NCBI GenBank assembly: GCA_045636465.1
Contig: JAZTXP010000013.1
Location: 24,686 to 88,685 of the forward strand
Length of the DNA: 64,000 nucleotides
Direction: 5' to 3'
Source: Eubacteriales bacterium
Lineage (GTDB): Bacteria; Bacillota; Clostridia; Oscillospirales; CAG-272
Part shown: positions 3,601-61,327 of the stretch, piece by piece
Numbering within the stretch: the stretch's first letter is position 1
Layout: each line of letters starts with the position of its first letter
Notes under the pieces: generated by a model
Databases searched by the model: none
Told to the model about the DNA's origin: nothing
Seen by the model: the letters and a program-made list of their open reading frames with translations, nothing else
Position numbers and translations under genes: made by a program

Positions 3601-4800
3601 TTATTTAAGACCGTTCACGATTTCGAGCGTATCTCTTGCGATCATAAGCTCCTCGTTTGTAGGAAGAACGTAAACTTTAATTGTCGAATCAGGGGTAGAA
3701 ATCTCTACTTCCTCGCCTCTGATCTTGTTCTTGGCCTCGTCGATTTTAACTCCCATAAAGGCAAGCTTCTCGCATACCGCGCTTCTGTACTCGCCTGCAT
3801 TCTCGCCGATGCCGCCGGTGAATACGATAGCATCTGTACCGCCCATGCAGGTGATGTAAGAGCCAACGTACTTAGCGATCTGGTGCTTGTACATCTCAAC
3901 TACGAGCTTGCATCTTTCGTTGCCCTCTGCCGCGAGGTTACCGATCTCCTGGTTATCGCTGGTGATCTCGGTTACACCTAGCATACCCGATCTCTTGTTA
4001 AGGAATCTGTCAACGTCGTCTGCTGTGGTAAGCTCGCCCTTTCTCATAAGGTAAGGGATGATAGCGGGATCGATAGAGCCTGCGCGAGTACCCATCATAA
4101 TACCCTCTGCGGGAGTAACGCCCATAGAGGTGTCGTAGCACTTACCACCCTTAACAGCTGCGAAAGAAGCGCCGTTACCAAGGTGGCAGGTAACGATGTT
4201 GCACTGATCAGCGGGCTTGCCAAGGTGAGCGATAGCGCGCTGTGTAACATATCTGTGAGAGGTACCGTGGAAGCCGTAGCGGCGGATGTGGTACTTCTCG
4301 TAATATTCGTAAGGAATCGCATACATATAAGAGGATGCGGGCATTGTCTGATGGAAGGATGTATCAAACACCGCTACCTGAGGAACGGACATGATCTTCT
4401 CGCACTCTACGATGCCCTTAAGGTTTGCAGGGTTATGAAGAGGGCCAAGGTCGCAGCATTCCTCGATGATTGCCTTAACCTCATCGGTAACGAGAACAGA
4501 GCCGGAAAGCTTTGCGCCGCCGTGAAGAACTCTGTGTCCTACCGCGCTGATCTCGGAGGTGGACTTGATAACGCCCTTATCCTCGGAAACGAGAGTATCA
4601 AGAACGAGCTGAAGCGCTACTGCGTGGTTAGGCATATCGGGTGTTGCCTTATAAGTATCCTTTTCCGGAACGGAATATTTGAATCTGGACTTGCCGCCGA
4701 TCTCCTCGCAAATACCCTTTGCAATTACAGACTCGTTCTCCATGTCGATAAGCTGGAACTTAAGGGAAGAGCTGCCTGCGTTAATAACTAAAACCTTCAT
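3601..4800 (-). CDS. ackA: Acetate kinase
   Basis: 399 aa. MKVLVINAGSSSLKFQL N-terminus and conserved GFHGTSH and TGGIGEN motifs. Confidence 0.95.
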   Translation of the reverse strand: MKVLVINAGSSSLKFQLIDMENESVIAKGICEEIGGKSRFKYSVPEKDTYKATPDMPNHAVALQLVLDTLVSEDKGVIKSTSEISAVGHRVLHGGAKLSGSVLVTDEVKAIIEECCDLGPLHNPANLKGIVECEKIMSVPQVAVFDTSFHQTMPASSYMYAIPYEYYEKYHIRRYGFHGTSHRYVTQRAIAHLGKPADQCNIVTCHLGNGASFAAVKGGKCYDTSMGVTPAEGIMMGTRAGSIDPAIIPYLMRKGELTTADDVDRFLNKRSGMLGVTEITSDNQEIGNLAAEGNERCKLVVEMYKHQIAKYVGSYITCMGGTDAIVFTGGIGENAGEYRSAVCEKLAFMGVKIDEAKNKIRGEEVEISTPDSTIKVYVLPTNEELMIARDTLEIVNGLK

Positions 4801-4838: not shown

Positions 4839-5345
4839 TTACATATTTGTTGGAATAAAGGATATGAGAGTTTCGAAGTCCCTGGTGATAACAAGGTAAA
4901 GCACTACCACGATTATACCGATTCCTACACCGCAAATCACCTGCAAGGGAGTGTGTCCCACAAGGGTTTTAAGCTTTTCGAGCTTGACCTCCTCATCATG
5001 CTCCAGAAGATACTCATTGAATGTCTCGGCAAGCTCGATGATGGAACGCGCATGCTTTCCTGCCTCCTGGCGCACGCCTGTAGCATCGTGCATTACAACG
5101 ATAGCAAAAACCATAGCAATGCCAAAGATCGGATTGTCAAATCCCAGCCTAAAGCCGGTCATCAGTGCCATTGCCGTTACTGTTGCAGAATGTCCTGATG
5201 GCATACCGCCGTCACCAAAAAGGCGCTCAACGTTCAAACGCTTAGTCACGATTGCGTTGATAACTATCTTCGTAAGCTGCGCGATAAGCCAGGATGCCAG
5301 AGAAACTATAAGAACGTCGTTGCCTATAATGCCTAAAATACCCAT
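4839..5345 (-). CDS. Divergent PAP2-family membrane protein (DUF212, acid phosphatase/vanadium-haloperoxidase-related)
   Basis: 168 aa, multi-TM, with motifs GGMPSGHSATV and GHTPLQV. Confidence 0.8.
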   Translation of the reverse strand: MGILGIIGNDVLIVSLASWLIAQLTKIVINAIVTKRLNVERLFGDGGMPSGHSATVTAMALMTGFRLGFDNPIFGIAMVFAIVVMHDATGVRQEAGKHARSIIELAETFNEYLLEHDEEVKLEKLKTLVGHTPLQVICGVGIGIIVVVLYLVITRDFETLISFIPTNM

Positions 5346-5523
5346 TTATTATCTCCCTTTTAAACTTAGCAATTGATTTTTGCTCATACATAGTTATTTT
5401 AACATTTATTTTATATTTTTGCAATAGTTTTTGTAATATTTTTCTCAAATATTTAGAAAACCGCGGTTTTTTGAATTTTTTTTGAATATTTTATTAATAA
5501 TTGTAAATTTGAACGAATATCAG

Positions 5524-5980: not shown

Positions 5981-6155
5981 GCTGTATAGGCTGCGTGACA
6001 AGAAAAGTCGGGTGCGACGACTTTTTTTGATAACTGCAAGACACAACGAAAGAAGATCAAATTTCGCCTTCAGCTACATCTCCATTCTCCGCTTTACCAC
6101 CCTGAAAAGGGACGGCGTGATGCCCGATAAGAGCATCACGCCGTGTAAGTATTTA

Positions 6156-7280
6156 TCAGAAGAGAAGATTCTGCTCTGTCTTGGGATCGAAGAAGTGCAT
6201 TACCTTACCCTCGAAGGTAACGTAAATTGTTGCACCTGCAACGAGCGCGTTTCTGATACCGTCATCAAGAGAAACAGTGGGAACACGAACGATGAGTCTG
6301 TCACCTGTTGCGGTTGCAACGTGGAGGTGAAGCTCGCTACCCATCATTTCATTAACCTCGATCTTGCAAGCGATTGCGCCGGGGTTATTCTTGTTGGTGA
6401 GCTTGATATGCTCGGGACGAACGCCGAGAATGATATCTCCGCCGCCAATATTCTTAGCTCTAAGCATATCTGCCTTCTTGCCGTCAACGAGGATCTTCGC
6501 GCCGTAAGCTGTTACGTAGTGGTGGCCACCCTCGTAATAAAGCTTGGAACGGAAGGTATTCATCTTGGGAGCGCCGATGAACTCAGCAACGAAGAGGTTC
6601 TTGGGCATATCGAATACCTCTGTGGGAGTGCCAACCTGCTGGATGAAGCCGTCCTTCATAATAACGATACGGTCACCGAGAGTCATAGCCTCTGTCTGGT
6701 CGTGTGTTACGTAAATGAAGGTTGTATCGATCTTCTTACGGAGAAGAATGATCTCTGCTCTCATCTGGTTACGAAGCTTTGCGTCAAGGTTAGAGAGAGG
6801 TTCGTCCATAAGGAATACCTTGGAGTCACGAACCATCGCACGGCCGATAGCAACTCTCTGACGCTGACCGCCGGAAAGAGCTCTGGGCTTTCTTGCGAGG
6901 AACTCGGTAATGCCGAGAATCTCTGCTGCGTTAGTAACCTTTGCATAAACCTCTTTCTGAGGCATCTTCTTAAGGCGAAGGCTGAACGCCATATTTTCAA
7001 ATACTGTAAGGTGAGGATAAAGCGCATAGTTCTGGAATACCATGGCGATATCACGGTCACGGGGCTGAAGGTCGTTTACAACAACGCCGTCGATCTCGAC
7101 TGTACCTTCAGAAATGTCCTCAAGACCTGCGATCATACGGAGAGTGGTGGACTTACCGCATCCCGAAGGACCTACGAAAACAATAAATTCCTTGTCGGCA
7201 ATCTCAAGGTTGAAGTCCTGAACCGCAACCGTATTCTTGCCGTATATCTTTTTAACATTAGTTAATTTTACTGAAGCCAT
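6156..7280 (-). CDS. Sugar ABC transporter ATP-binding protein (MsmK/MsmX/MalK family)
   Basis: 374 aa. Walker A GPSGCGKST, signature LSGGQRQR, Walker B FLMDEPLSNLD, and a C-terminal TOBE-like regulatory domain. Confidence 0.9.
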   Translation of the reverse strand: MASVKLTNVKKIYGKNTVAVQDFNLEIADKEFIVFVGPSGCGKSTTLRMIAGLEDISEGTVEIDGVVVNDLQPRDRDIAMVFQNYALYPHLTVFENMAFSLRLKKMPQKEVYAKVTNAAEILGITEFLARKPRALSGGQRQRVAIGRAMVRDSKVFLMDEPLSNLDAKLRNQMRAEIILLRKKIDTTFIYVTHDQTEAMTLGDRIVIMKDGFIQQVGTPTEVFDMPKNLFVAEFIGAPKMNTFRSKLYYEGGHHYVTAYGAKILVDGKKADMLRAKNIGGGDIILGVRPEHIKLTNKNNPGAIACKIEVNEMMGSELHLHVATATGDRLIVRVPTVSLDDGIRNALVAGATIYVTFEGKVMHFFDPKTEQNLLF

Positions 7281-22630: not shown

Positions 22631-23536
22631 ATGAAAAATATCGTAAACTACGTAATAAACATCGTACTCATATTCGCTATAGCGGCCTTGGCCGTTGCTC
22701 CTCTTGAAAGCCCTATAACCGAAAAGGGCCTTCGCTGGATGTCCGCCTTAGAGGATGACAGAGCAATTAATGAGCTTTCCATCCCCGGAACGCACGATAG
22801 CGGCGCAACCCATTCCATCGCAGACGTGGCAGGAAAATGCCAATCCCTCTCTATTGAGGATCAGCTTTACATCGGCGTAAGGTTCTTTGATATCCGTCTT
22901 CAGCAGGTTGAGGACGACTTCAACATCGTTCATAGCTTCGTCGATCAGGGCGAGGATTTCGACGACGTGCTGGAGGATATGGCAGAATTCGTGAAGCGAA
23001 ATCCTACCGAATTTCTCTTTGTTTCCATTAAGAAGGATGCCGACGCAAAAAGACCCGAGGGCGATTTTACGTCTCTTCTTGAAGAGGAGCTTCGTGAATA
23101 CGACTGCATCTCAACCTCTACTACTCTTCCCAAAACCGTAGGCGAGGCAAGAGGCAAGATATACATAATTTCAAGATATGAGGGCGCTACTATGGGTATC
23201 CCCGCCTATGAGGGCTGGGCAGATTCTCAGAGCTTTGAGCTTGGCGAGCTTTACGTGCAAGATAACTACAGAGTTGACAGCGCGGAGGAAAAGATCACCG
23301 ATATAGAGGCGACTATGGCTATCGCCGATAGATGCACCTACGGCCTTGTGCTTAACTACACAAGCTGTTATCTCACCTCGGGCTTCCCTCCCTCATACGC
23401 GGCCACCCCCGCAAAGACCATCAACCCCTGGCTTATAGAAAGACTCAATCTTGAATCTCGTCCGCAGGGTGTTCTCGTCTGCGATTTTATGACAAGCGAG
23501 CTTGTTAAATCTATCTGGGAGGTGAACTTCAGATGA
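22631..23536 (+). CDS. Phosphatidylinositol-specific phospholipase C X-domain protein, membrane-anchored or secreted
   Basis: 301 aa with an N-terminal hydrophobic segment. PI-PLC X-box motifs LSIPGTHDSGA and RFFDIRL. Confidence 0.8.
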   Translation: MKNIVNYVINIVLIFAIAALAVAPLESPITEKGLRWMSALEDDRAINELSIPGTHDSGATHSIADVAGKCQSLSIEDQLYIGVRFFDIRLQQVEDDFNIVHSFVDQGEDFDDVLEDMAEFVKRNPTEFLFVSIKKDADAKRPEGDFTSLLEEELREYDCISTSTTLPKTVGEARGKIYIISRYEGATMGIPAYEGWADSQSFELGELYVQDNYRVDSAEEKITDIEATMAIADRCTYGLVLNYTSCYLTSGFPPSYAATPAKTINPWLIERLNLESRPQGVLVCDFMTSELVKSIWEVNFR

Positions 23537-24011: not shown

Positions 24012-26087
24012 TTAACCTATAAGATTAACGATGAGATCCCAAAGACAGGTGATCTCTGCAAGAACGGGAACGAGAACGAGGGATATTACAGACATGAGCT
24101 TGATAAGAATATCCATCGCGGGGCCTGCGGTATCCTTGAAGGGGTCACCAACGGTGTCACCGGTGATGGCCGCCTTATGAGTTTCGCTTCCCTTGCCGCC
24201 GAAGTTTCCTGCCTCGACGTATTTCTTGGCATTATCCCAAGCGCCGCCTGCGTTAGCCATAAATACAGCCAGCATAATAGCCGATACAAGACCACCGATA
24301 AGCAAACCGCCAAGACCCTCAGAGCCGATGATGAAGCCTGCCGCAATGGGAGATACGAGAACGATAATACCGGGAACGATCATCTCGCGAAGAGAAGCCG
24401 CTGTGGAAATATCGATACATCTGTTATAATCGGGAGCCATCTTACCCTCGAGAATTTCGGGATGGGCCTCGTACTGAGCGCGAACCTCGTCAACCATCTT
24501 ATTAGCCGCTCTACCAACCGAGCCGATAGTGAGCGAGCTGAAGAGATAAGGAAGCATTGCGCCGACGAGCATACCAACGAGAACCTTGGGGTCTGAAAGA
24601 GCAATATCAACCTTTGCCGCCTCGATGAAGGACATAATAAAGGCAAGAGATGTGAGAGTTGCAGAGCCAATGCAGAAGCCCTTACCGATAGCCGCAGTGG
24701 TGTTACCTACAGAGTCAAGCTTATCCGTGATCTCACGAACGCCGTGAGGAAGCTCAGCCATCTCCGCAATACCGCCTGCGTTATCCGCAATAGGTCCGTA
24801 GCCGTCAACAGAAACGGTGATACCAACTGTGGAAAGCATACCTACAGCCGCAAGAGCGATACCGTAGCTGCCGCCGAAGAAGTAAGAAACTGCAATAACC
24901 AATGCAAGGCAAGCGATGGTGAGCCAGGTAGACTTCATACCTACGCCCATACCTGCGATAATGTTAGTACCGTGACCCGTAGTGGATTCCTTTGCGATCT
25001 GCTTAACCGAGGCAAACTCATCGGAGGTATAAAGCTCCGCGATGAAGCCGACGCCGATGCCTGCGAGAAGACCTGCAACCACACAGACGAGAAGCTTCCA
25101 GTTTCCAACGTAGAATATTGCAAGAGTAACAGCCGCCACGATAACAATGCCGGTAGCAATATATGTAGCAATATTAAGCGCCTTATGAGGATCAGCCCAC
25201 TTTCTTGCGCGAACTATAACAACAGAGATAACAGCCGCAAGCGCGCCTATGCCGCAGAGCAGGATGGGGAAAAGCATGTGCTTTGCGGTGAGACCGGGAG
25301 TGAGAAGAGCCATTGTAAGGGCAGAAAGTATAGATCCAACATAGGATTCAGTAAGGTCGGAGCCCATACCTGCGATATCGCCAACGTTATCACCAACGTT
25401 ATCCGCGATAGTTGCGGGGTTTCTGGGGTCATCCTCGGGAATGCCTGCCTCAAGCTTACCTACAAGGTCTGCGCCAACGTCTGCCGCCTTAGTATAAATA
25501 CCGCCGCCAACACGGGCAAAGAGAGCGATGAGCGAGCAGCCCAAGCTATAGCCTGTAAGGATCTGAATGGGCGAATGAATATCCTTGGTAATAGCGTATA
25601 CCACAAGAGTGATAGCCGAAAGACCCAAAAGACCGAAGCCCACAACCGAAAGACCGAGAACCGCGCCGCCGCTGAAAGCGATATTAAGCGCGCCCGACAT
25701 ACCCTCGTCGCGAGCCTTAACGGCTGTACGCGCGTTAGCCTTGGTGGCAACGAACATACCTATCCAGCCTGCCGCCGCAGAGAACAACGAGCCGATGATA
25801 AAGCAGATAGCTGCCTTCCAGCCAATTCCCTCTGCGCCCTGAAGAGCAGGGATAAAGCCCAATACCGTAAGCAATACGCCTATTCCGATAACAAAGGGAA
25901 TGATCAGCTTATACTCACGAATGAGGAAGGTCATTGCTCCGTCGTGAATGTGCTTGTGAATAGTCTCAACCTTGTCATCGTTAATTGCGACTCTTGATAC
26001 TCTGTGGAATAGCACGAAAACGTATCCGAGAGTGATCACCGTAGCAAAAATGACGAGGATCAGCGGAAAATAAATGTTGAATTCCAT
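24012..26087 (-). CDS. hppA: Membrane-bound proton/sodium-translocating pyrophosphatase
   Basis: About 691 aa from the ATG at 26087 ([12 protein letters not shown]), preceded by AAGGAAAC. Motifs [26 protein letters not shown] and [10 protein letters not shown]. The track start at 26207 lies upstream of the predicted promoter and is rejected. Confidence 0.95.
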
Positions 26088-27264: not shown

Positions 27265-27996
27265 TCAATCTAAAGCTGCAAATTCAAGAACCCTCTCGAT
27301 AGGCTCTCTGATAATCAAAGTGGCATAAGGATCGTAGGGTGTTTCAGTCTTATTTATGATAACGAAATGCTTGCCTCGGAAGGCTCTTACCAGCGATGCC
27401 GCAGGATAAACCGTCAGCGATGTTCCGCCTACGATAAGTACATCTGCCTCCGAAATTGCCAACTCTGCTTTACAAAGCGGCTCGCTTTCAAGCCCCTCTC
27501 CGTAAAGTATAACATTGGGTCTCACGAGATTTCCGCATTTATTACATCGGGGCACACCCTCGCTCTTCATCACAAAATCAAGCCCGTATCTCTCGGTGCA
27601 GACAGTACAATAATTCTGAAGCACAGAGCCGTGAAGCTCTATAACGTTTTGACTTCCCGCCGCCTGGTGAAGGCCGTCTATATTTTGGGTTATGACAGCG
27701 GTGAGCTTTCCTTCGTCCTCTAGTCTCTTGAGGGCAAGATGCGCCCTGTTGGGTCTTGCATCCTTGTAGATCATCTCGTTTTTATAGTAGCGATAGAAGC
27801 CCTCGGGATTTTTCATAAGATACCTGCCGCTGAGAATTTCCTCGGGTCTTGCATCGTATTTATTTTCCTTTTGGTAGAGGCCGTCGCCGCCCCTGAAATC
27901 GGGGATACCGCTGGCAGTTGAAACGCCTGCTCCGCCGAAGAAAACAATGCTTTTCGCCTCCGCGATTATCTCGCGAAGCATCTCGGATTTGTTCAT
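27265..27996 (-). CDS. cobB: NAD-dependent protein deacylase (Sir2 family)
   Basis: GAGVSTASGIPDFRG, TQNIDGLH and a Zn module (CTVC...CNKCG). The ATG at 27996 (MNKSEMLREI) is preferred over the track start at 28008. Confidence 0.9.
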   Translation of the reverse strand: MNKSEMLREIIAEAKSIVFFGGAGVSTASGIPDFRGGDGLYQKENKYDARPEEILSGRYLMKNPEGFYRYYKNEMIYKDARPNRAHLALKRLEDEGKLTAVITQNIDGLHQAAGSQNVIELHGSVLQNYCTVCTERYGLDFVMKSEGVPRCNKCGNLVRPNVILYGEGLESEPLCKAELAISEADVLIVGGTSLTVYPAASLVRAFRGKHFVIINKTETPYDPYATLIIREPIERVLEFAALD

Positions 27997-28188
27997 ACCC
28001 ACCTCCAAAACGAAAAAAATTCATCCAAAAATCACGTAGGCGAAGAAACATATCGCATCGCCCTTTTTGGTATAGCATATATAGTATACCACAAAAAATC
28101 CCCGAGTTCAAGCCATTTTAGGAACAAAAAGGCGACAAATCTCTTTTACCCCATTTTGCACAAATTATGAATCTTTTTCACAAAAGCA

Positions 28189-28217
28189 TTGCATTCGGGG
28201 AAAATAAATGATATAAT
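28189..28217 (+). promoter_or_regulatory. Sigma-A type promoter for the TetR-family gene
   Basis: TTGCAT (28189-28194), 17-nt spacer, TATAAT (28212-28217). Confidence 0.6.
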
Positions 28218-28282
28218 TATATGGGATCTGCCGAAAAGGGGCAGACATCTTTCATTCGGTAACTACCTGAAGGGGAAATAAT

Positions 28283-28864
28283 ATGTCTAAGAAAAGCTTT
28301 AATACAAAAGGAATCAACTACCCAAAGACAAGGCTCGGTATGGCGAAGATGAACAAGCTGGCGGAGGCGGCGGAGGGGCTTTTCTCTACGGTCGGCTTCT
28401 ATAATACCTCCATCGTGGATATTTGCAAGAGGGCTGATACTGCCGTCGGCACCTTTTATATATATTTTGAAACCAAAGCAGACGTTTACCGCTACCTCTT
28501 AAGGAAATACAATGATGATATTTTGGCGAATATGGACGAGGCGATCAGCACCCCCACCGATAAGGCAAAAAGAGGTCGGGAGAGCATCAGGGCTTTTATA
28601 AAATACGTTAAGGAGCATCCAAACGCCTATACTGTTATACTCGGCAGCCTCTCGGTGGATAGGTCGATGTTTTTCGGTTGTATTTCTGCCTTTGCGGAAG
28701 CCTTAGAGGGAGAGCTTGGCGGCGAAGGGGGCGACTTCTCTGCCCTTACCTATTCTCTGATAGGAATTTCGGGTATGCTGGGACTGAAGGCGATATCCGA
28801 GGAAATGACAAACAAGGATATAGACAAAATGTTAGACGGCTTCTCCTTCGCAAGCCTCATATAA
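28283..28864 (+). CDS. TetR/AcrR family transcriptional regulator
   Basis: 193 aa. N-terminal HTH (FYNTSIVDICKRADTAVGTFYIYFETK) and a helical C-terminal ligand domain. Confidence 0.85.
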   Translation: MSKKSFNTKGINYPKTRLGMAKMNKLAEAAEGLFSTVGFYNTSIVDICKRADTAVGTFYIYFETKADVYRYLLRKYNDDILANMDEAISTPTDKAKRGRESIRAFIKYVKEHPNAYTVILGSLSVDRSMFFGCISAFAEALEGELGGEGGDFSALTYSLIGISGMLGLKAISEEMTNKDIDKMLDGFSFASLI

Positions 28865-28866
28865 AT

Positions 28867-28949
28867 AAAAGAGCAGGTTTTATCTATTGAAGTGAATCCG
28901 AAAAATACTTTCGATTGTATATCACTCAAAGGATTCCCTGCTCTTTTTA
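28867..28949 (+). terminator. Long branched hairpin ending in a U-run immediately after tetR (terminator or structured 3' element)
   Basis: Outer stem AAAAGAGCAGG (28867-28877) / CCTGCTCTTTT (28937-28947). Inner stems GAATCC (28894-28899) / GGATTC (28931-28936) and CGAAA..TTTCG. T5 follows. Confidence 0.55.
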
Positions 28950-28985
28950 TTGAGTTTACGGTTTTAACTTTTGGCCTTATTTATG

Positions 28986-29128
28986 GACGTTCATCTTACT
29001 TCAAAATACGTTTATCGTCTATCAAAGACATTTTTCTTACATTAAAAGACGTTTGCTTCAATCAACAGACGTTCATCTTATATTAAAAAACGTTTACTTC
29101 TATCAATAGACGTTTATCTTCTTTTTTA
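28986..29128. repeat. Seven tandem 20/21-bp direct repeats (core GACGTTTATCTT), organised as a 41-bp super-repeat x3.5
   Basis: Units start at 28986, 29007, 29027, 29048, 29068, 29089 and 29109. Odd units end in ...TTAAAA and even units in ...TATCAA(A/T)A. The array is non-coding and lies between convergent gene ends. Confidence 0.85.
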
Positions 29129-29150
29129 TAGGCGACTTTTCGGCGTCTGA

Positions 29151-29639
29151 TCACGTCTCCGAGCGCTTTTTTATCTCTTCCCGAAGCCACCTCATAACGC
29201 CGAGACAGCCCTCGTAAATATCCTCATAAGCGATATCAAATCGGTCGGTATACCAGGGATCTGCCACGTCGCCTCCGCGAGGGGTGAAATCCATCAGCTT
29301 ATGAAGCTTTCCTTCGGGATCGCCTGAGAGAATACGGAGAGAGTTGCGGATATTCTTCTCGTCCATAGCGATTAAGATATCGTATTTTCCATAGTCGTCC
29401 TTCGTAAGCTGAACAGCCCTTTTGCCCGAGGGGTCTATGCCGTGCTTTTTAAGCTCACGAACGGCAGGCGGATAAACGGGATTACCTACCTCGCCCCATA
29501 TTTCCTCTCTAGAGGTGGCAGATGATGCAACCGACGATACCCCCACAAGTGAAGAGTCCTCTATCATTTTTCGCATAACGAACTCTGCCATAGGGCTGCG
29601 GCAGATATTTCCGTGACATATAAACATTATTTTTATCAT
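29151..29639 (-). CDS. Low-molecular-weight protein-tyrosine phosphatase
   Basis: Starts at MIKIMFICHGNICRSP (CX5R(S/T) P-loop), with a DPWY motif near the C-terminus. The ATG at 29639 is preferred over the track start. Confidence 0.85.
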   Translation of the reverse strand: MIKIMFICHGNICRSPMAEFVMRKMIEDSSLVGVSSVASSATSREEIWGEVGNPVYPPAVRELKKHGIDPSGKRAVQLTKDDYGKYDILIAMDEKNIRNSLRILSGDPEGKLHKLMDFTPRGGDVADPWYTDRFDIAYEDIYEGCLGVMRWLREEIKKRSET

Positions 29640-29786
29640 TAACAACTCCCGAAAAACAAGAGAGCAAAAGCTAAAAGCCAAATATGCAAATTTAAGTTGT
29701 CATATTGCGGTCTTTTGCGCTTTCGCTCTTTTTATATTGACACTAATCAAAGCGCGCCCTGATAACTGTATTTTTGCTTTCTCGCC

Positions 29787-31286
29787 TTATTTTAACGTTT
29801 CAGCGCGCCTTCCTTTTGCGGTTTTTTTCTCGCATCGCTGGTAGAATATCTCGGTAGCAAAGGCGATCTTGGTGGCAACGTTTTTCTTGGTGGGATAGCA
29901 ATAGAAGGAATCGTTCTCGGTGGAAACGTCTATGCAATCCTTAAGAGGCTTGATCTTGGGGAAATCATACTCCACGTGGAGGCCGCTTGTCTGAATAGGC
30001 GTTCTGTGAATACAGAAGTCCTCGCCGTTATAATGTCCGCGAACTACGAAGCCATCCACCTCATTATGAACGAGCGTTCCCTTGCCAAGATAGGGGAAGC
30101 TATAGCAGCCGGGCTGGGAATAGATCTCAACATCGTCAGAGAATGAGTATTCTCCTCGCTCGATCTGACCTTTGACCTGCTCCTTTTCCCAATTGAACCA
30201 ATCGGGAACGTGAGAAAACTCGGTCTCGCCCTCGTTTGCCTTAAGCGATCCGTCCTCAAGAAGAGTCCATCTCTTGCCGCACTTCTCGCAGAATATCTCG
30301 CTGCCGAGAGAATTCATCTCCGACTCCGCCATACAGTGAGGACACTGATAAAGAACCTTATGTAAGCCCTCTGCCCTCCCCGGCTCTGTGATGAGAATGC
30401 TGTTTTCCTTCTGATATTTATAGTCGTCGTAGGTCATCTCGGATTTGATAAAATCGTTGATCTCCTTTGCTGACATCCTTTCAATATCCTCCGCTGTGAG
30501 CGAAAGCTTGATGGTGGTGTGAAGAGGAACCTTTCTGTTATTCTTCACGTTCCAGGCAGGCTGAAGAAGATGGTTGCCTCTCTGTGTGACGATAACCACG
30601 GGAACCTTACATCTCTTTATAAGCATGCCCAGAGACTCGGGGAGATAGGAGCTGACACCGCAAGGGGAATATCTCGCCTCGGGGTACATACAAAGCACGT
30701 CGCCGCGGGAGAGTACCTTGCGGATAGACTTGATAAGATGGATATCCGAGGTGAACTTTCTTGTTCCGATAGAGCCGATCCACTCCATGAGCCAGGGACG
30801 AAGGTAATAGCCGTCGATATTTACCACGTTGTTCATTCTCTGGGGATATGTACCTACCGACACAAGCTCGAAGTCAACGAAGGACATGTGATTGGAAAGA
30901 ATCATATAAGGAGGCTTTAGCCCCTCCATGCCTATCCTCTCCACCTTCTTCTTCTTACCCATCAGCATTATCTGAGAAAGAACCCAAATAAGCCAGGTAA
31001 GATAGATAGGCTGCCTTATAGGATATTTTGCAGTTTTATAGTATTTATGAAACCTATAGTTTACATTTTTAGGGATTATTTCTTCTTTTTCGCCCTCGCA
31101 CTCAGAGGGAGAATTTACAGAATCTTCGGATTTTTCGTAATTATTTTCCGAATTTTCCGAGCAAGGCGCCGCATTTTCACCGTTTTTTTCGGGAGATGCT
31201 ACGCCCTCGCAAAAGATTTCATTTTCTTCCTCGGAATGTCTTGTATCAATAGTCGTATCGTTATTTATTACTTTTAAGTTATTCAC
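29787..31286 (-). CDS. Lysophospholipid (PlsC-type) acyltransferase family protein with a C-terminal Cys4 ribbon
   Basis: 499 aa. An acidic, low-complexity N-terminus (the real start may be internal). NHMSFVDF (HX4D) and YPEARYS motifs. CPHC...CEKCG in the C-terminal half. Confidence 0.75.
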   Translation of the reverse strand: MNNLKVINNDTTIDTRHSEEENEIFCEGVASPEKNGENAAPCSENSENNYEKSEDSVNSPSECEGEKEEIIPKNVNYRFHKYYKTAKYPIRQPIYLTWLIWVLSQIMLMGKKKKVERIGMEGLKPPYMILSNHMSFVDFELVSVGTYPQRMNNVVNIDGYYLRPWLMEWIGSIGTRKFTSDIHLIKSIRKVLSRGDVLCMYPEARYSPCGVSSYLPESLGMLIKRCKVPVVIVTQRGNHLLQPAWNVKNNRKVPLHTTIKLSLTAEDIERMSAKEINDFIKSEMTYDDYKYQKENSILITEPGRAEGLHKVLYQCPHCMAESEMNSLGSEIFCEKCGKRWTLLEDGSLKANEGETEFSHVPDWFNWEKEQVKGQIERGEYSFSDDVEIYSQPGCYSFPYLGKGTLVHNEVDGFVVRGHYNGEDFCIHRTPIQTSGLHVEYDFPKIKPLKDCIDVSTENDSFYCYPTKKNVATKIAFATEIFYQRCEKKTAKGRRAETLK

Positions 31287-31336: not shown

Positions 31337-33085
31337 TTAAATGCTATATTTTCCTTTATATTCCTTATATTTTTCCTCGAATGCCGAGTCCTCTCGCTTG
31401 ATCTCTCTCATATACTTGTGGGTATCGATAAGCTCCCTCTCGGCGATCTCGATAACACACTCCGCAATATTGGAGCAATGGTCGGATACACGCTCAAAGT
31501 TGTTAAGTATATCGGCGAGAATAAATCCGTTTTCGATAGTACATTCGTTGTTCTGAAGACGGCGAATGTGATTGCGCTTTATCTTGCTCTTAAGACCGTC
31601 GATAACCTGCTCAAGAGGCTCGACCAATCTCGCCTTTTCGATATCGTTATTGAGGAATGCTTCCTCGGTTATACCAAGTATCTCGCGTATTGCGTCGCGC
31701 AAAATGGCAAGCTCACGGCGAGCCTCCTCGGAGAATTCCATCTTTTTATCGGCGATTTCCTCTGCCGATTCAACGATATTTACTGCGTGGTCGGAGATAC
31801 GCTCAAGGTCGCCTATAATGTGAAGGAGCTTTGATACTTGCTTTGAATCCTGCTCGTCAACCTCATTTTCAGCGATCTTGATAAGATAACTGCCAAGGCT
31901 ATCCTCGTAATTATCCGCCTTGCTTTCCTGCTTTCTGACCTTTTCGGCAAGCTTCACGTCATACTGCTCGAATACCGAAAGTGCATTGCGCAGAGCCTTG
32001 AAGGAAACCGTTGCCATAGATCCTGTAACCTCTGTAGCGCGCGCTACCGCAACCGCAGGGGTGAGAAGCAAACGCTCGTCGAGGGGGCTTGCCTTCTCGT
32101 CCTCGTCCTCCTCCTTGTCCTTTACCGTAAGAACGGCAAGCTTTTCAAGAAGCTTATAGAAGGGGGCGATAAGGGCTACGGAAAGTATCTTGAATATGGT
32201 GTGTACCGCTGCAACGCCCCACATATTGATGGTTCCGTCGGCAAAATTCGCCACGTACGGAACGAGGGCTTCAACGATGGAGTAAACCGAAAGCCACACC
32301 ACCATACCGATTATATTGAAGTAGAGATGCACGAAGGCGGCTCTTTTACCGTTCTTATTCGCACCGATAGAAGAGATCATTGCGGTAACGCAGGTACCGA
32401 TGTTCTGACCCATAATGATGGGGATCGCCGCGCCGTAGGTGATTGCGCCGGTTGCCGTCAGGGACTGAAGAATACCGATTGATGCGGAGGAGGACTGAAC
32501 TATAACAGTAAGAACAAGTCCTGCAAGAACGCCGAGGATGGGATTCTGGAACTTAAGGAGGATATTTGCAAACTCAGGATCGTTCTTAAGACCGCTTACC
32601 GAGCCGCTCATTATATCCATACCCACCATAAGAACCGCAAAGCCGAGAAGAATATATCCTACATCTTTCTTTTTACCTCTCTTGGCAAACATCGTGAGTA
32701 TTATACCTATCGCAGCAACCAGGGGTATCCAGGAGTCGGGCTTCAGCCATCTCAGAGCATCGCCTACACCGGAAAGACCTGTAAGCCAGGCGGTAACCGC
32801 TGTACCTACGTTCGCTCCCATAATAACGCCAACCGACTGAAGAAGGGTCATAGTTCCCGAGTTTACAAAGCCCACTACCATAACCGTGGTAGCAGATGAT
32901 GATTGAATAACCGCGGTTACGCCGAGACCGAGAAGGAAGCCGCGAAGAGGACTTGAGGTCATCTTGGCAAGGATCTTTTTAAGGCTTGAGCCCGCGCTTT
33001 TTTTAAGCGATTCGCCCATAACGTCCATTCCGTAAAGGAAGAGAGCCAAGCCGCATACCAATTCTAAAATTTCAAAAATTCCCAT
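31337..33085 (-). CDS. Na+/phosphate cotransporter family protein with C-terminal PhoU-like repeats
   Basis: NptA-type TM repeats (QSSSATT / QSSSASIG) followed by two PhoU-like helical repeats (ERISDHAVNI, ERVSDHCSNI). The ATG at 33085 (MGIFEILELV) is preferred. Confidence 0.85.
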   Translation of the reverse strand: MGIFEILELVCGLALFLYGMDVMGESLKKSAGSSLKKILAKMTSSPLRGFLLGLGVTAVIQSSSATTVMVVGFVNSGTMTLLQSVGVIMGANVGTAVTAWLTGLSGVGDALRWLKPDSWIPLVAAIGIILTMFAKRGKKKDVGYILLGFAVLMVGMDIMSGSVSGLKNDPEFANILLKFQNPILGVLAGLVLTVIVQSSSASIGILQSLTATGAITYGAAIPIIMGQNIGTCVTAMISSIGANKNGKRAAFVHLYFNIIGMVVWLSVYSIVEALVPYVANFADGTINMWGVAAVHTIFKILSVALIAPFYKLLEKLAVLTVKDKEEDEDEKASPLDERLLLTPAVAVARATEVTGSMATVSFKALRNALSVFEQYDVKLAEKVRKQESKADNYEDSLGSYLIKIAENEVDEQDSKQVSKLLHIIGDLERISDHAVNIVESAEEIADKKMEFSEEARRELAILRDAIREILGITEEAFLNNDIEKARLVEPLEQVIDGLKSKIKRNHIRRLQNNECTIENGFILADILNNFERVSDHCSNIAECVIEIAERELIDTHKYMREIKREDSAFEEKYKEYKGKYSI

Positions 33086-33210
33086 ATTTTTTCCTTTCGT
33101 AAAAGAAGCGAATAAGAAAATTCGCATTTTTTCACAATACCATTATAGCAAAAGAATGTCTATTTTTCAATAGTTTTTTATAATCGCGCATGTATTGTGT
33201 GCATTTTACA

Positions 33211-56061: not shown

Positions 56062-56937
56062 TTATAAGGCGCTGTCCTCTTCTGCAATTTCTGCTTCAGC
56101 CTCGGGAGCCACATCGTCCTCAGGCTCGTCAGCGCTATCCGTCTCCTCTGCTTCCTCGGGTTGTTCACCGGACTCTTCGAACTCTGCCACGTCCTCTGTG
56201 ACGGGCTCTTCTGCATCTTCGAGCTCAATAGCTTCATCGGTTTCAGCCTCCTCCGGCTGCACCTCTGCCTCGCAATGACTCTGTGCTTCGTCACTTTCTG
56301 GTGCGTCCTCTTCCCTCTCGTGCTCGCAAGCCTCGGCAGCAGCTTCATCGGGAGAATCTATGCTAAAATTAGGATCAGGCTCTGCATAATCAACCTTCAA
56401 TTCGCCATAGCCCTCCTCTGCGAGAACCTCGTCTGCCCAGGTATCATTTTCATCGGGAACAAAATCTTCGCCGGGGTTATATTCATCAGCGCGGGGCTCA
56501 GCCTCAGGCTGAGATGCCTCTTCCACTACAATCTTTTTCGCATTTTTCTTAGCTTCTCTTGCCTTCTCCACTCTATCCATCTTCGCGAAGGTAAAGCCAA
56601 AGAGAGATGCAAGCGCACCTATTACAACAAGGGCAATCGAGAACGTGCCGTAGGTTGCCCACTCAACGAGAGAGATACCCACGCCGTAAGCGATAGGCAA
56701 AAGCCACATCCAGCCCTTGGGTGCTTTCTTTATGGTTGCTGTATAGGATGCGACCAATGCGCAAACGGGCAACACCAGCCATCGCATCGCCACAAGATAT
56801 ACCTTAACCCATTCCACGTCCGGTAATATACGAAACAGTATTATAGCCGAAAGTGCAAGAACTCCAAAAATAGCTGAAAAAATTATAAGGGGTAAATTTC
56901 TTTCCTTTGTAGATCTATTTTCCATAATAACCTCCAT
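56062..56937 (-). CDS. Membrane protein with a long polyacidic, disordered C-terminal tail
   Basis: 291 aa. Four TM segments in the first ~125 aa, a basic juxtamembrane patch (KAREAKKNAKK), then about 155 residues dominated by E/D/A/P. Confidence 0.6.
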   Translation of the reverse strand: MEVIMENRSTKERNLPLIIFSAIFGVLALSAIILFRILPDVEWVKVYLVAMRWLVLPVCALVASYTATIKKAPKGWMWLLPIAYGVGISLVEWATYGTFSIALVVIGALASLFGFTFAKMDRVEKAREAKKNAKKIVVEEASQPEAEPRADEYNPGEDFVPDENDTWADEVLAEEGYGELKVDYAEPDPNFSIDSPDEAAAEACEHEREEDAPESDEAQSHCEAEVQPEEAETDEAIELEDAEEPVTEDVAEFEESGEQPEEAEETDSADEPEDDVAPEAEAEIAEEDSAL

Positions 56938-57075
56938 TTTTATACAAAAAATCCATTTTTTCTATAATTTCAATTATATTATACACCAAATAAACGATAA
57001 ATGCAAGTTTTAAGGAATTATTTTATGTATTTTTATAGTTATTTTAATGTTTTTCGTAAATAAATCCGTATTTTG

Positions 57076-58603: not shown

Positions 58604-60163
58604 TTAGTCGATTGTGATGTTTGCAACCTCGGGAGCAACAGCATCTGTGCCTGCTGCTGCAGGAGCTGCTTCGTGACGAGCTTCAAGCTCTTCGGTCATC
58701 TGAGCGAGCTTCTTCTTATCAAGGTTATAGATAAGACCAAGACCAACGAACTGCATAATGCCGGCTACAAGGTAAAGAACTGCAACAAGCATACGGATCT
58801 TGGAAGAAACGTCCCAACCAAATGCAGAGGGGTCAATAGCGTCGAAGGGAATACCCTCGATAAGTGTGTGGCTGTATTCGCCTGTTACGGGATCAAGGTA
58901 AGCATTGTTCTGATAACCAAGAGTGCCCATGATAGCGATAGCTACTGCAGGACCAACGCCCTGAGCGAGCTTTCTGAAGAAGGAGTGAAGGGAGTATACG
59001 ATACCCTCGTCTCTGCTACCTGTCTTCCACTCGTTGTAGTCAATAGCGTCACCCATCATAGCCCAAGATACTGTGGAATAGATACCAAGACCGAGAGCAC
59101 AAACGAGCTGACCAACAACGTAAACGATAAGGTCAAGACCTGTGTTGCCTTCGCTTACAGGAATAATACCAAGCGGGCCTGCGAAGAGAATGATAGCACC
59201 CGCGATATAAGCAACAGAACCAATAACGGAAAGCTCCTTCTTACCATACTTCTTAACCATCTTACGAGCAAGAGGTGTGAAGAGGATGATAGGAAGCATA
59301 GCAAATGCGGATACAAGACCGGAAATGCTGGTGTTCTTGAAGTAGGACTGGAATGTTACGGTAACTGCTGTGGTAGCACCCTGCATACCGATGAACATAC
59401 CCATAGCTGCAAGTGTAGCACCTACTGCAGGACGGTTCTTGAGGAAGTTCCACATTGCCTTGAATACGTTGAACTTAGGCTGTTCTTCGTTAAGTGTAAG
59501 ATCCTTTTCAACACGGATCTCTGTGTTCTTGATCATGAACATGAAGCAGAAGAATCCGAAAATACCCATGATGAATGCGGTACCGAATGTCTTATAAGGA
59601 TTAAGAACGTTGTTATCGTAAATGAGCATGGGGAGAAGGATCATAGGAACCATGTTACCCACAAGACCACCGATAGAACGCCATGCGGAAAGAGAAGCAC
59701 GGTCAGAAGGATCGGAGGAAATGAGGGAAAGGAGTGAACCGTAAGGAACATTCGCGATGGTGTAGAATGCATCCCATACTACATAACCGGCTACGAAGAT
59801 GATAGCCTTTGCGATAGGATGTAAGCTGGGAACGGGAATAAATACGCAAGCACCGCCTATGATAAGACCGATAGAACCAACGAATATGTACTGAAGGAAC
59901 TTGTTTCTCTTATAAACGCGCTTATCAGCGTCAACCATAGAACCGATAATAGGATCGTTGATAGCGTCCCAAACCTGAACGATGATAAGGAGAAGCGAAT
60001 ACCATGCCTGCATACCCATGATCTGGGTCCAGAAGATGGCCATTGTGCCCTTGAGAGCAAAGCTCATGTTACAGCCAAGGTCGCCTGCAGCATACGCGAC
60101 TGAGTCGCGAATACCAAACTTGCGATGGCCGTTTGCGTCAAGATTTTTTTGTTTTCTTGCCAT
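58604..60163 (-). CDS. Glycoside-pentoside-hexuronide (GPH):cation symporter family MFS transporter
   Basis: About 519 aa from the ATG at 60163 (MARKQKNLD), preceded by AAGAGG. 12 TM. GPH-like N-terminal motif (FGIRDSVAYAAGDLGCNM). Hydrophilic C-terminal tail. Confidence 0.8.
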   Translation of the reverse strand: MARKQKNLDANGHRKFGIRDSVAYAAGDLGCNMSFALKGTMAIFWTQIMGMQAWYSLLLIIVQVWDAINDPIIGSMVDADKRVYKRNKFLQYIFVGSIGLIIGGACVFIPVPSLHPIAKAIIFVAGYVVWDAFYTIANVPYGSLLSLISSDPSDRASLSAWRSIGGLVGNMVPMILLPMLIYDNNVLNPYKTFGTAFIMGIFGFFCFMFMIKNTEIRVEKDLTLNEEQPKFNVFKAMWNFLKNRPAVGATLAAMGMFIGMQGATTAVTVTFQSYFKNTSISGLVSAFAMLPIILFTPLARKMVKKYGKKELSVIGSVAYIAGAIILFAGPLGIIPVSEGNTGLDLIVYVVGQLVCALGLGIYSTVSWAMMGDAIDYNEWKTGSRDEGIVYSLHSFFRKLAQGVGPAVAIAIMGTLGYQNNAYLDPVTGEYSHTLIEGIPFDAIDPSAFGWDVSSKIRMLVAVLYLVAGIMQFVGLGLIYNLDKKKLAQMTEELEARHEAAPAAAGTDAVAPEVANITID

Positions 60164-60383
60164 TTTGTTTTTTACCTCTTTCTTTTTTTCGGTATTTTTC
60201 ATTAAAAAAAGCAATTTATGAATTGAAGTTTGCCTTTTGGGGGTTCGCCGAAATACATAAGTTGCTCGCTTTAACTAGTCATTTACCGTATTTTATTATA
60301 TCATATTTAATAGTTTTGTCAACATTTTTAATATATTGTTAACAATTTATTCACACTTTTTTGGCTCATTTTACTATATCGAA

Positions 60384-60445: not shown

Positions 60446-61327
60446 TTAAATTTTAGGAACGTATGCTCTTGCCGCTTCCTTGGTTATGGCAATGAGTCGC
60501 TTCATAGGAAGAGTCAGCACCTTATCAGATTTCACTGCCACGCAGATGTTACGGGAAATGAAGGGAGAAATAGGCACTATACGGACGTTATCGTGGCGAT
60601 CTGCGATAGTCAAGGCGGAAAGCATACTGATGCCCAGGTTATGCTCTACCATTGAAAGGATAGCGGGGTCATCAACGTATGTAGGGGTAACGAAGGGGTG
60701 CACCTTATGCTCGTTGAACACCTGGCCGATATCATCGTCGTAGCCAAGGCCGGGCATGAGGAACTTTGTTCCGTTGAACTGCTGAATTGGGAAGGTATCA
60801 GAGCTTAAGGGATATTCCTTTGGCAGGATAGCATAGTAACGGTCGGACATAAGGGATGTCCATTTGAATTCATACTTATTATTCTTTGTACCGTAGCAGA
60901 TATCAAATCTCTCGTCGCGCAGGCCGCCGTAAAGCTCAGCAACCGTACCGGTCTGAATATTGAGGGTAACGCTTGGGAACTCCGCATTGAAGCGCTCAAC
61001 GATAGCAGGCAGAATACTTCCCGCCAGGCTGGAAAAGGCACCGATCCTGATAACGTTATCGCCGTAGGATTTAACCAGGTCGATCTCGTTCATAAGAGCG
61101 TCCTCACAGTTAACAAGCTCGCGGATTCTGGGGATTATTCTCTCTCCGCCGGGTGTTAACTTAACACCAAAGTATCCGCGCTGAAGGATGGAAAATCCAA
61201 GCTCATCTTCAAGGGCATTCATCATGTGAGTAAGTCCCGATTGGGTATATCCAAGTTTATTTGCAGCGGCAGAAAAGCTTCCCATATCCACAGCGGCAAG
61301 CAATGCTTTATATTTTGAAATATTCAT
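60446..61327 (-). CDS. LysR family transcriptional regulator
   Basis: 293 aa. N-terminal wHTH (ALLAAVDMGSFSAAANKLGYTQSGLTHMMNALE) and a periplasmic-binding-protein-like effector domain. Confidence 0.9.
   Translation of the reverse strand: MNISKYKALLAAVDMGSFSAAANKLGYTQSGLTHMMNALEDELGFSILQRGYFGVKLTPGGERIIPRIRELVNCEDALMNEIDLVKSYGDNVIRIGAFSSLAGSILPAIVERFNAEFPSVTLNIQTGTVAELYGGLRDERFDICYGTKNNKYEFKWTSLMSDRYYAILPKEYPLSSDTFPIQQFNGTKFLMPGLGYDDDIGQVFNEHKVHPFVTPTYVDDPAILSMVEHNLGISMLSALTIADRHDNVRIVPISPFISRNICVAVKSDKVLTLPMKRLIAITKEAARAYVPKI

Follow-up and report, generated by a model that had tools for sequence, protein, structure and literature searches.

Repeat array and gene arrangement

The DNA analysed here (64,000 nucleotides, positions 24,686 to 88,685 of contig JAZTXP010000013.1, assembly GCA_045636465.1; hereafter the window) comes from a member of the Eubacteriales (Oscillospirales, CAG-272) and contains, between the 3' ends of two convergent genes, an array of seven short tandem repeats. 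One of these genes codes for a TetR/AcrR-family regulator and the other for a low-molecular-weight phosphotyrosine phosphatase (LMW-PTP, or PTP), an arrangement correctly described in the original prediction, which was made from the sequence alone and likened the array to plasmid or phage iterons. The element is an intergenic tandem-repeat array, and unexpected conservation is its one standout feature. Because it has changed little since it arose by local duplication in one narrow lineage, the array probably has some function. The coordinates of the features are collected in Table 1.

The seven units start at positions 28986, 29007, 29027, 29048, 29068, 29089 and 29109, with a spacing that alternates between 21 and 20 bp; direct reading gave the same sequences, coordinates and spacing as first reported. 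The units have the sequence NACGTTYNNCTTNNNTYAANA in common, and six of the seven contain the self-complementary tetranucleotide ACGT. The core of unit 3 is degenerate (GACATT), and a polymorphism (A versus C) among haplotypes falls exactly at the degenerate position. The G+C content of the array is 28%, versus 46% for the window. Tandem Repeats Finder calls the array at 28986-29120 with a period of 41 bp (3.3 copies, 78% matches) and a score of 163, the maximum of the window, which bears out the 41-bp super-period that had been noted. The array is also called with a period of 20 bp (5.9 copies, score 96). Simulation gave lower scores, up to 63 when the 64-kb window was modelled as a first-order Markov sequence (60 runs) and up to 92 when 64 kb were drawn with the array's own AT-rich dinucleotide composition (30 runs). 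The array is real, non-random and chromosomal, and lies far beyond what chance produces. Paralogous 41-mers are 74-83% identical within the window and 69-88% identical across haplotypes. The mean unit spacing of 20.5 bp is close to two helical turns and the A/T tracts are in phase, in agreement with the helically phased geometry proposed at the outset. The view that the array is neither a terminator nor a clustered regularly interspaced short palindromic repeats (CRISPR) array also stands. The units adjoin directly, with no spacers between them, so that the unique spacers of CRISPR arrays are lacking.

As a side observation, the unit cores GACGTT and AACGTT are the classic immunostimulatory CpG hexamers for mouse TLR9. 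That six such hexamers lie within 143 bp of the DNA of a gut commensal is noted as a curiosity only.

The matches of the TetR protein to NCBIfam models are weak (FasR-, FadR- and RefZ-like, all far below the curated cut-offs). Its homologues, with identities of 94-50%, come from metagenomes and metagenome-assembled genomes (MAGs) of gut Clostridia, and no exact-protein record was found for it. The PTP, which also has NCBIfam matches and whose homologues have the same length, is encoded by the last gene of a minus-strand run in the order Na/Pi-PhoU transporter, acyltransferase-like protein, PTP. This order is kept in the relatives L002, L006 and L008.

The gap between tetR and the PTP gene had been described as gene-free. 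This part of the description holds, but the gap is not featureless, as a long hairpin lies directly 3' of the tetR stop codon, with an A-run before it and a T-run after it. The hairpin is beyond the loop limit of the promoter/terminator scan and was detected by an inverted-repeat search. Its folding energy is -26.7 kcal/mol (z = -5.7), and an equivalent hairpin with other inner sequence occupies the same place in L005, L002, L006, L008 and L109 (-26 to -32 kcal/mol, z -4.8 to -6.8); the loop region is also highly conserved in close relatives. These features make it likely that the hairpin is a bidirectional intrinsic terminator common to tetR and the phosphatase operon. This putative terminator and the PTP stop codon delimit the stretch that contains the array, and the promoter/terminator scan gave no promoter-like site in 28865-29150 on either strand. 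A coding role for the array was rejected: the 41-bp period is not a multiple of 3, and the only candidate small open reading frame (ORF), 28892-29086 (64 aa), which starts inside the hairpin and has no Pfam match, carries a disrupting indel at 28960 in three haplotypes.

Table 1. Features at the array locus and other features mentioned in the text (positions in the window)
Feature	Position	Strand	Description
Repeat array	28986-29128	none	143 bp; seven 20/21-bp units, equal to 3.5 copies of a 41-bp unit
TetR/AcrR-family regulator gene	28283-28864	+	193 aa; Pfam TetR_N, E = 1.3e-10
Long hairpin	28865-28949		81 nt; arms 28867-28877/28937-28947, 11/11 complementary
Spacer	28950-28985		Between putative terminator and array; homologous to array-less L002 (TATCAAATTACCGGTTTTAATTCC..TTATTTATA)
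Post-array segment	29129-29150		From array to PTP stop codon; homologous to TAGGTGA...TTCGGCATCT in L002
LMW-PTP gene	29151-29639	-	162 aa; Pfam LMWPc, E = 1.8e-25
Acyltransferase-like protein gene	29787-31286	-	Same run as PTP
Na/Pi-PhoU transporter gene	31337-33127	-	Same run as PTP
Palindrome 5' of tetR	28064-28097		TGGTATAGCATATATAGTATACCA
Palindrome 5' of tetR	28212-28223		ATATAATTATAT; overlaps -10-like box GATATAAT
11-12-bp tandem repeats	5413-5499		ATATTTTTGCA x2.7; TTTTTTGAATA x2.4-3.0; Tandem Repeats Finder table only
~20-bp tandem repeat	60302-60348		CATTTTTAATAGTATTGTCAA; 2.3 copies, 81% matches

Distribution among relatives and origin of the array

The array is present in seven assemblies that represent five haplotypes (the window, L001, L012, L104/L105 and L106/L107), always with seven units, and among these carriers the identity of the PTP protein to that of the window goes down to 89%. 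The convergent order of tetR and PTP is kept in all contigs with close homologues of the TetR protein and the phosphatase. Six syntenic sister lineages lack the array. L005 and L108 (TetR 88% and PTP 86% identical) have just about 34 nt between terminator and stop codon; L109 (PTP 84% identical), L006/L007 (TetR 63% identical) and L008/L010 (TetR 58% identical) are likewise without it, and L002 (TetR 77% identical) has a single proto-unit. Relatives hold 0-1 unit or seven, with no intermediate counts. The nearest named genomes are MAGs of Eubacteriales/Clostridia from the ruminant gut, whose TetR proteins show only about 50% identity, with none closer than about 52%.

The original prediction had regarded absence from close relatives, or high variability in them, together with the lack of a detectable binding protein, as the mark of a neutral minisatellite, and had raised the matter of copy-number variation between strains. 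The array is indeed absent from the syntenic sisters, whereas among the carriers the number of units does not vary at all and the sequence hardly does.

The origin of the array can be approached through L002. In this relative, the left spacer (...TTATTTATA) and the right segment (TAGGTGA...TTCGGCATCT) surround one 42-nt segment ending in GGACTTTTATCTTTTTTA. The identity of this segment to the last 41-mer of the window is 29/46, a score reached by 1 of 500 shuffles, and the segment is the best array-like site outside the array according to the position weight matrix (PWM; 15.8 bits). Since the flanks are homologous to those of array-less L002, which holds a single ~41-bp proto-unit between them, the comparison shows amplification of spacer DNA in situ and not an insertion. 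As judged from these alignments, the array arose by tandem amplification of a single-copy, AT-rich segment of about 41 bp located between the LMW-PTP stop codon and the terminator. It has been inherited vertically in a small clade of uncultured gut Clostridia. Because the 41-mers are now only 69-88% identical, the amplification is old relative to the divergence among the carriers.

Among 80 loci obtained from a TetR-profile scan of species genomes, no homologous array was detected with Tandem Repeats Finder. Unrelated intergenic repeats are found in two relatives whose TetR proteins are about 46-48% identical. L054 has them near its tetR homologue at 3701-3873, 1978-2196 and 5995-6351, with periods of 91-92 bp and 187 bp, and L051 has a 21-bp-period repeat of 2.6 copies at 4500-4555. 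Intergenic tandem duplication seems to be fairly common in these gut Clostridia.

Conservation among the carriers

The nucleotide diversity (pi) among the carriers, calculated from five haplotypes only, all of them on short metagenomic contigs, is 0.022-0.024 in the array, 0.024-0.030 in the hairpin, 0.05-0.06 in the short spacer and post-array segments (0.057-0.062 for the spacer 28950-28985), and 0.07 in the tetR and PTP coding sequences. At the four-fold degenerate sites of these two genes it reaches 0.18-0.21, and in the 5' intergenic regions 29640-29786 and 28180-28282 it is 0.11 and 0.20, respectively. Divergence in the array is thus lower by a factor of 5-8 than at four-fold sites and in the neighbouring intergenic regions. 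In Fisher tests on segregating sites, the difference is significant with respect to four-fold sites (p = 2.5e-9) and to the control intergenic region (p = 4.5e-4), and the array is less diverged than even all coding sites (p = 0.006). Despite its many A/T homopolymer runs, the array shows a single indel of 1 bp, while the alignments of the two control intergenic regions contain 12-75 gap columns.

The divergence of the array from the window is 0.7% in L012, 1.4% in L104 and 4.2% in L106, the corresponding values for the PTP coding sequence being 6.2, 5.3 and 12.3%. Divergence is high again directly from the tetR stop codon. Since the divergence of the array scales with that of its flanks and high divergence resumes at this stop codon, a recent sweep or introgression is unlikely, and a sweep is disfavoured as the cause of the low diversity. 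The simplest reading is that purifying selection acts on the whole interval between the PTP stop codon and the terminator, including the array.

The array could also be a functionless fossil minisatellite, that is, a decaying duplication of spacer DNA produced by slippage or unequal crossover, whose apparent conservation would come from a low local mutation rate, from hitch-hiking with the constrained terminator or from the small sample. Its restriction to one narrow clade and a single locus, together with the lack of a partner gene and of any known motif, would suit such a fossil. The identity of the units (69-88%) is what an old duplication would give and, as slippage is rare at such unit divergence, a stable copy number would not be surprising; the sporadic occurrence of unrelated intergenic tandem repeats at related loci points in the same direction. 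However, a fossil should not be less diverged than four-fold sites, two adjacent intergenic regions and even the flanking coding DNA, nor should its A/T runs be almost free of indels, and the scaling of its divergence with that of the flanks argues against a recent sweep. We therefore consider the fossil explanation unlikely. The unusual conservation among carriers is better accommodated by a functional multi-site platform than by a neutral minisatellite, as had been proposed.

Genomic context and searches for further copies

The Pfam scan covered about 47 ORFs of the window. The genes are ordinary chromosomal ones and include those for GreA, acetate kinase, glycoside hydrolases, Opp-type ABC transporters, a P-type ATPase, SpoIIIAH, an ECF sigma factor, and Crp and LysR regulators. 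No Rep, Par (ParA/B/M/R), TubZ/R, LytTR, integrase or transposase family was detected among these ORFs, which for this part of the window agrees with the earlier remark on the lack of replication or partition genes nearby. Nor does the GC skew of the window switch, and a replication origin or terminus was rejected on that ground.

The blastn search with 28860-29160 gave no match in 72,556 plasmids or 50,697 phage records. A 21-nt unit pattern had 11 matches in 241 million metagenome records, the sole true array being that of L012, at the same locus; the others are single chance matches inside unrelated coding sequence. The two matches to the unit pattern in viral contigs are also single chance matches inside coding sequence, and none of 185,579 species-representative genomes contains a 29-nt two-unit pattern. 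Within the window, the 12-nt core recurs nowhere else with one mismatch or fewer, and the 16-bp unit PWM gives nothing above 13.8 bits outside the array; the match with this score, at 28477, is a conserved codon stretch inside tetR. A regulon of additional array-like sites was discarded because the PWM gave no convincing site. In these scans the array is a single-locus feature and neither a dispersed family nor the end of a mobile element. The original prediction had named the remnant of such an end as one of the findings that would overturn it; the array has no second copy in the window, genomes, metagenomes or viral contigs.

Elsewhere in the window, the 11-12-bp tandem repeats at 5413-5499 occupy the gap between a DUF212 gene (4839-5345, minus strand) and the next ORFs.

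These results bear directly on the proposal that the array is a plasmid or phage iteron array, a partition centromere or the end of a mobile element. The format by itself, with tandem direct repeats of 20/21 bp in helical phase, fits this proposal. However, initiator, partition, integrase and transposase genes are lacking in the window, the housekeeping gene order is conserved across relatives, plasmid and phage records show no similarity, the GC skew does not switch, and no second copy appears in the window, the species genomes or the metagenome records. With regard to a mobile end, the homology of the flanks to array-less relatives shows duplication in place. This reading is already largely refuted and has to be considered extremely improbable, and membership of the iteron/centromere family, as originally suggested, is not sustained.

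Binding of the array by the adjacent TetR, for which the original prediction had suggested an EMSA, fares no better: the palindromes at the regulator's own promoter are unlike the units, and the TetR gene is present with or without the array. A TetR operator was rejected because the units are direct repeats 3' of both genes, unrelated to the palindromes at 28068-28094 and 28212-28223. The best array-like PWM match 5' of tetR (11.7 bits) is within the background. The palindromes 5' of tetR are better operator candidates than the array for TetR or for the divergent SIR2 gene. The units were also compared by eye with known recognition motifs (DnaA box, cre, Cheo/LexA box, CtsR, WalR, PhoP, ARG box, ComK box and tetO), and no motif matched more than a single unit.

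The SIR2-tetR gap (28009-28282 in the window) differs in gene content among relatives. The window and L002 carry no gene there, L001 (1853-2662), L006 (1854-2663) and L007 carry a 269-aa HTH_3/Xre-like gene, and in L008 (2018-2791) and L009 the place is taken by a short-chain dehydrogenase gene. Among close haplotypes, this intergenic region is hypervariable (pi 0.20, with many indels).

A specific form of protein-binding platform would be a set of sites for LytTR-type response regulators of the AgrA/ComE/PlnC class. The consensus of these sites, [TA][AC][CA]GTTN[AG][TG], occurs as 9-bp direct repeats that are 12-13 bp, and sometimes 11 bp, apart (PMC5600425, PMC6193735). The first 9-mers of the seven units differ from it by 1, 0, 3, 2, 1, 1 and 1 mismatches, with spacers of 12/11 bp. 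In addition, TACGTTTAT is close to the plantaricin repeat TACGTTAAT. The consensus is loose, though: about 0.7% of positions match it with no more than one mismatch, and 16 such chance pairs are found elsewhere in the window; moreover, the units are copies of one another, so that their matches are not independent. No -35/-10 promoter lies 4-11 bp downstream of any pair, the plus strand leads antisense into a conserved gene, none of the ~47 ORFs encodes a LytTR protein, and seven sites are atypical when two are the rule. LytTR sites are a lead only, and a very improbable explanation.

Probable transcription of the array and possible RNA-level explanations

The segment between the array and the PTP stop codon (29129-29150) contains no terminator: its minus-strand fold has an energy of only -2.8 kcal/mol (z = -0.7) and is not followed by a U-run. 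In view of this, the array is probably transcribed on the minus strand as part of a phosphatase 3' untranslated region (3'UTR) of about 200 nt.

If so, the function of the array could be exerted at the RNA level. In such a case, repeated GAAGNNAACGUC-like motifs might be recognized by an RNA-binding protein, a small RNA or an RNase, or a small RNA derived from the 3'UTR, with its end at the terminator, might have the array as its body. The first strong minus-strand terminator after the PTP stop codon is the 28949-28865 hairpin, diversity is low throughout the interval from stop codon to terminator (pi 0.024-0.06, versus 0.18-0.21 at four-fold sites), and the array is conserved no more than its non-coding neighbours, all of which would be expected of a 3'UTR element. 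On the other hand, the minus-strand fold of the array is not significant (z = -1.4). The plus-strand fold (z = -2.9) comes solely from pairing between the self-complementary ACGU cores of adjacent units, and there is no convincing RNA structure in the array. A search of 27500-30500 against the 4227 families of Rfam gave no match even at E <= 10, and no known RNA-binding motif was recognized. Direct repetition with a period of two helical turns would be meaningless for RNA, and the sister lineages, in some of which the 3'UTR measures no more than about 34 nt, manage without the array. An RNA-level element is a somewhat doubtful alternative, yet one that deserves to be taken seriously.

A proposed DNA platform at the junction of convergent genes

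The explanation that we tentatively prefer, although we rate it a little short of an even chance, is that the array is a selectively kept, helically phased and curved DNA platform for a putative binding protein at the junction of the convergent genes. Purifying selection would maintain the array at the DNA level. Seven similar sites with an ACGTT core, two helical turns apart, would all lie on one face of a curved 143-bp segment, and a protein could bind or wrap them cooperatively where the two transcription units converge. Candidate binders include a regulator that recognizes direct repeats, a nucleoid-associated protein or a DNA-wrapping enzyme. The effect of binding would be confined to the locus, for instance a roadblock or insulator against read-through or the management of supercoiling between the converging genes, and replication and partition would play no part.

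The array is predicted to be strongly curved. In a simple AA-wedge model applied to 143-bp windows, its ratio of end-to-end distance to contour length is 0.78, versus a median of 0.975 for the whole stretch. It occupies rank 50 among 6386 windows (top 0.8%), and its curvature was reached by 0 of 500 shuffles. The same model places the most curved 143-bp windows at about 56,870-56,940 and 22,550 (ratios of 0.66-0.71), in gaps that adjoin the starts of the genes 56062-56937 (minus strand) and 22631-23536 (plus strand), the latter PI-PLC-like.

Another tandem repeat with a period of about 20 bp, at 60302-60348, is also among the top-curved regions of the wedge model. Its neighbours are the start of an MFS_2 transporter gene (58604-60214, minus strand) on one side and the stop codon of a LysR-family gene (60446-61327, minus strand) on the other, and it may be a LysR-type operator region.

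Several observations count against the platform. The wedge model gives a crude estimate of curvature, and the small set of haplotypes from short contigs limits the diversity comparison. The array shows no significant excess conservation over the spacer and post-array segments (p = 0.23) or over the hairpin (p = 1; Fisher tests as above). As it is no more conserved than its non-coding neighbours, the target of the constraint may be the whole 3'UTR and not the repeats in a binding role. When the 21/20 indel is taken into account in aligning the units, conserved columns turn up all along the unit and are not limited to a core. Constraint on intergenic DNA is in itself common, since 62-79% of intergenic sites are constrained in six bacterial species (bioRxiv 10.1101/069708). 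In our searches, no binding protein, promoter or second genomic site for the array was found. Finally, its absence from six syntenic sister lineages indicates that the array is dispensable for the neighbouring genes.

One version of the platform draws on an analogy with gyrase. The Escherichia coli gyrase motif consists of a central cleavage region and two periodic flanks that extend over about 130 bp (-63 to +66), and the enzyme is drawn to regions downstream of transcription units and to the intergenic BIME-2 repeats (PMC6379681). By analogy, the phased and curved DNA of the array might be a wrapping pad that recruits a wrapping or bridging factor, such as gyrase, a nucleoid protein or a new direct-repeat binder, and that would absorb positive supercoils or block read-through where the transcription units converge. 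This version is improbable. If true, the pad would be a single-locus, recently evolved counterpart, in a Gram-positive anaerobe, of topology elements of the REP/BIME type (repetitive extragenic palindromic sequences and bacterial interspersed mosaic elements).

Significance

If the conservation of the array reflects function, the locus offers a datable bacterial cis-element that would have been born by tandem amplification of a 3' spacer and then kept by selection. The comparison of carriers and non-carriers with a single-copy precursor, all of them at hand, would amount to a natural experiment on the birth of multi-site DNA or RNA platforms, and a functional array would also shed light on the role of the non-coding DNA between converging genes. 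If the array is inert, the lesson is that iteron-like geometry, even together with low divergence, does not alone indicate a replication or partition element. In either case the significance is local, with no link to mobility, replication, defence or a wider system.

Comparison with known systems

The array is without the companions that define iterons, centromeres, LytTR promoters, CRISPR arrays and dispersed repeats. The iterons of plasmids and phages (for instance those of pSC101, R6K, F and P1) are tandem direct repeats of about 17-22 bp that are AT-rich and lie on one face of the helix. The array shares the tandem direct repetition (20/21 bp), the one-face spacing and the AT-richness, but it has no initiator gene, origin context or replicon; it is located at the 3' ends of convergent housekeeping genes and was born by local duplication in one chromosomal lineage. 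It also differs from partition centromeres of the parC/parH/tubC type, as no partition NTPase or adaptor gene is present in the window.

LytTR repeats, such as those bound by AgrA, ComE, PlnC/D and HdrR/BrsR, resemble the array in their directly repeated 9-bp ACGTT/xxGTT motif, AT-rich spacers of 11-13 bp and period of 20-22 bp, and the consensus is matched with no more than one mismatch by five of the seven units, though it is loose enough for chance matches. However, the known sites are paired and located 4-11 bp upstream of a -35 box (PMC5600425, PMC6193735). The seven sites of the array have neither a promoter nor a regulated gene downstream, and the window lacks a LytTR gene among its scanned ORFs.

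With phased A-tract DNA the array shares A3-A6/T5-T6 tracts that recur in helical phase and a strong predicted curvature. Curved DNA is usually described upstream of promoters, whereas the array lies between two gene ends; the other top-curved windows border gene starts, although the curved gap at about 60,270 borders the stop codon of the LysR gene as well as a gene start.

The REP/BIME-2 elements of E. coli, which bind gyrase, are also intergenic and located downstream of transcription units, and provide a precedent for proteins involved in wrapping or topology; the gyrase footprint, of about 130 bp with periodic flanks, is similar in size to the 143-bp phased array (PMC6379681). These elements are palindromic and dispersed in hundreds of copies, unlike the direct repeats of the array at one locus. 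Dispersed families in general (REP/BIME, BOX and the ends of miniature inverted-repeat transposable elements) differ from the array, which has no further copies in the window or in the metagenome, viral and genome scans.

Bacterial minisatellites, or variable number tandem repeats (VNTRs), such as the mycobacterial interspersed repetitive units (MIRUs), are defined by copy-number polymorphism and near-identical units. Like them, the array is made of non-coding head-to-tail repeats of tens of bp, of the kind produced by slippage or unequal recombination, and is lineage-specific. Unlike them, it is fixed at seven units in seven assemblies, its units are 69-88% alike, and it changes more slowly than synonymous sites.

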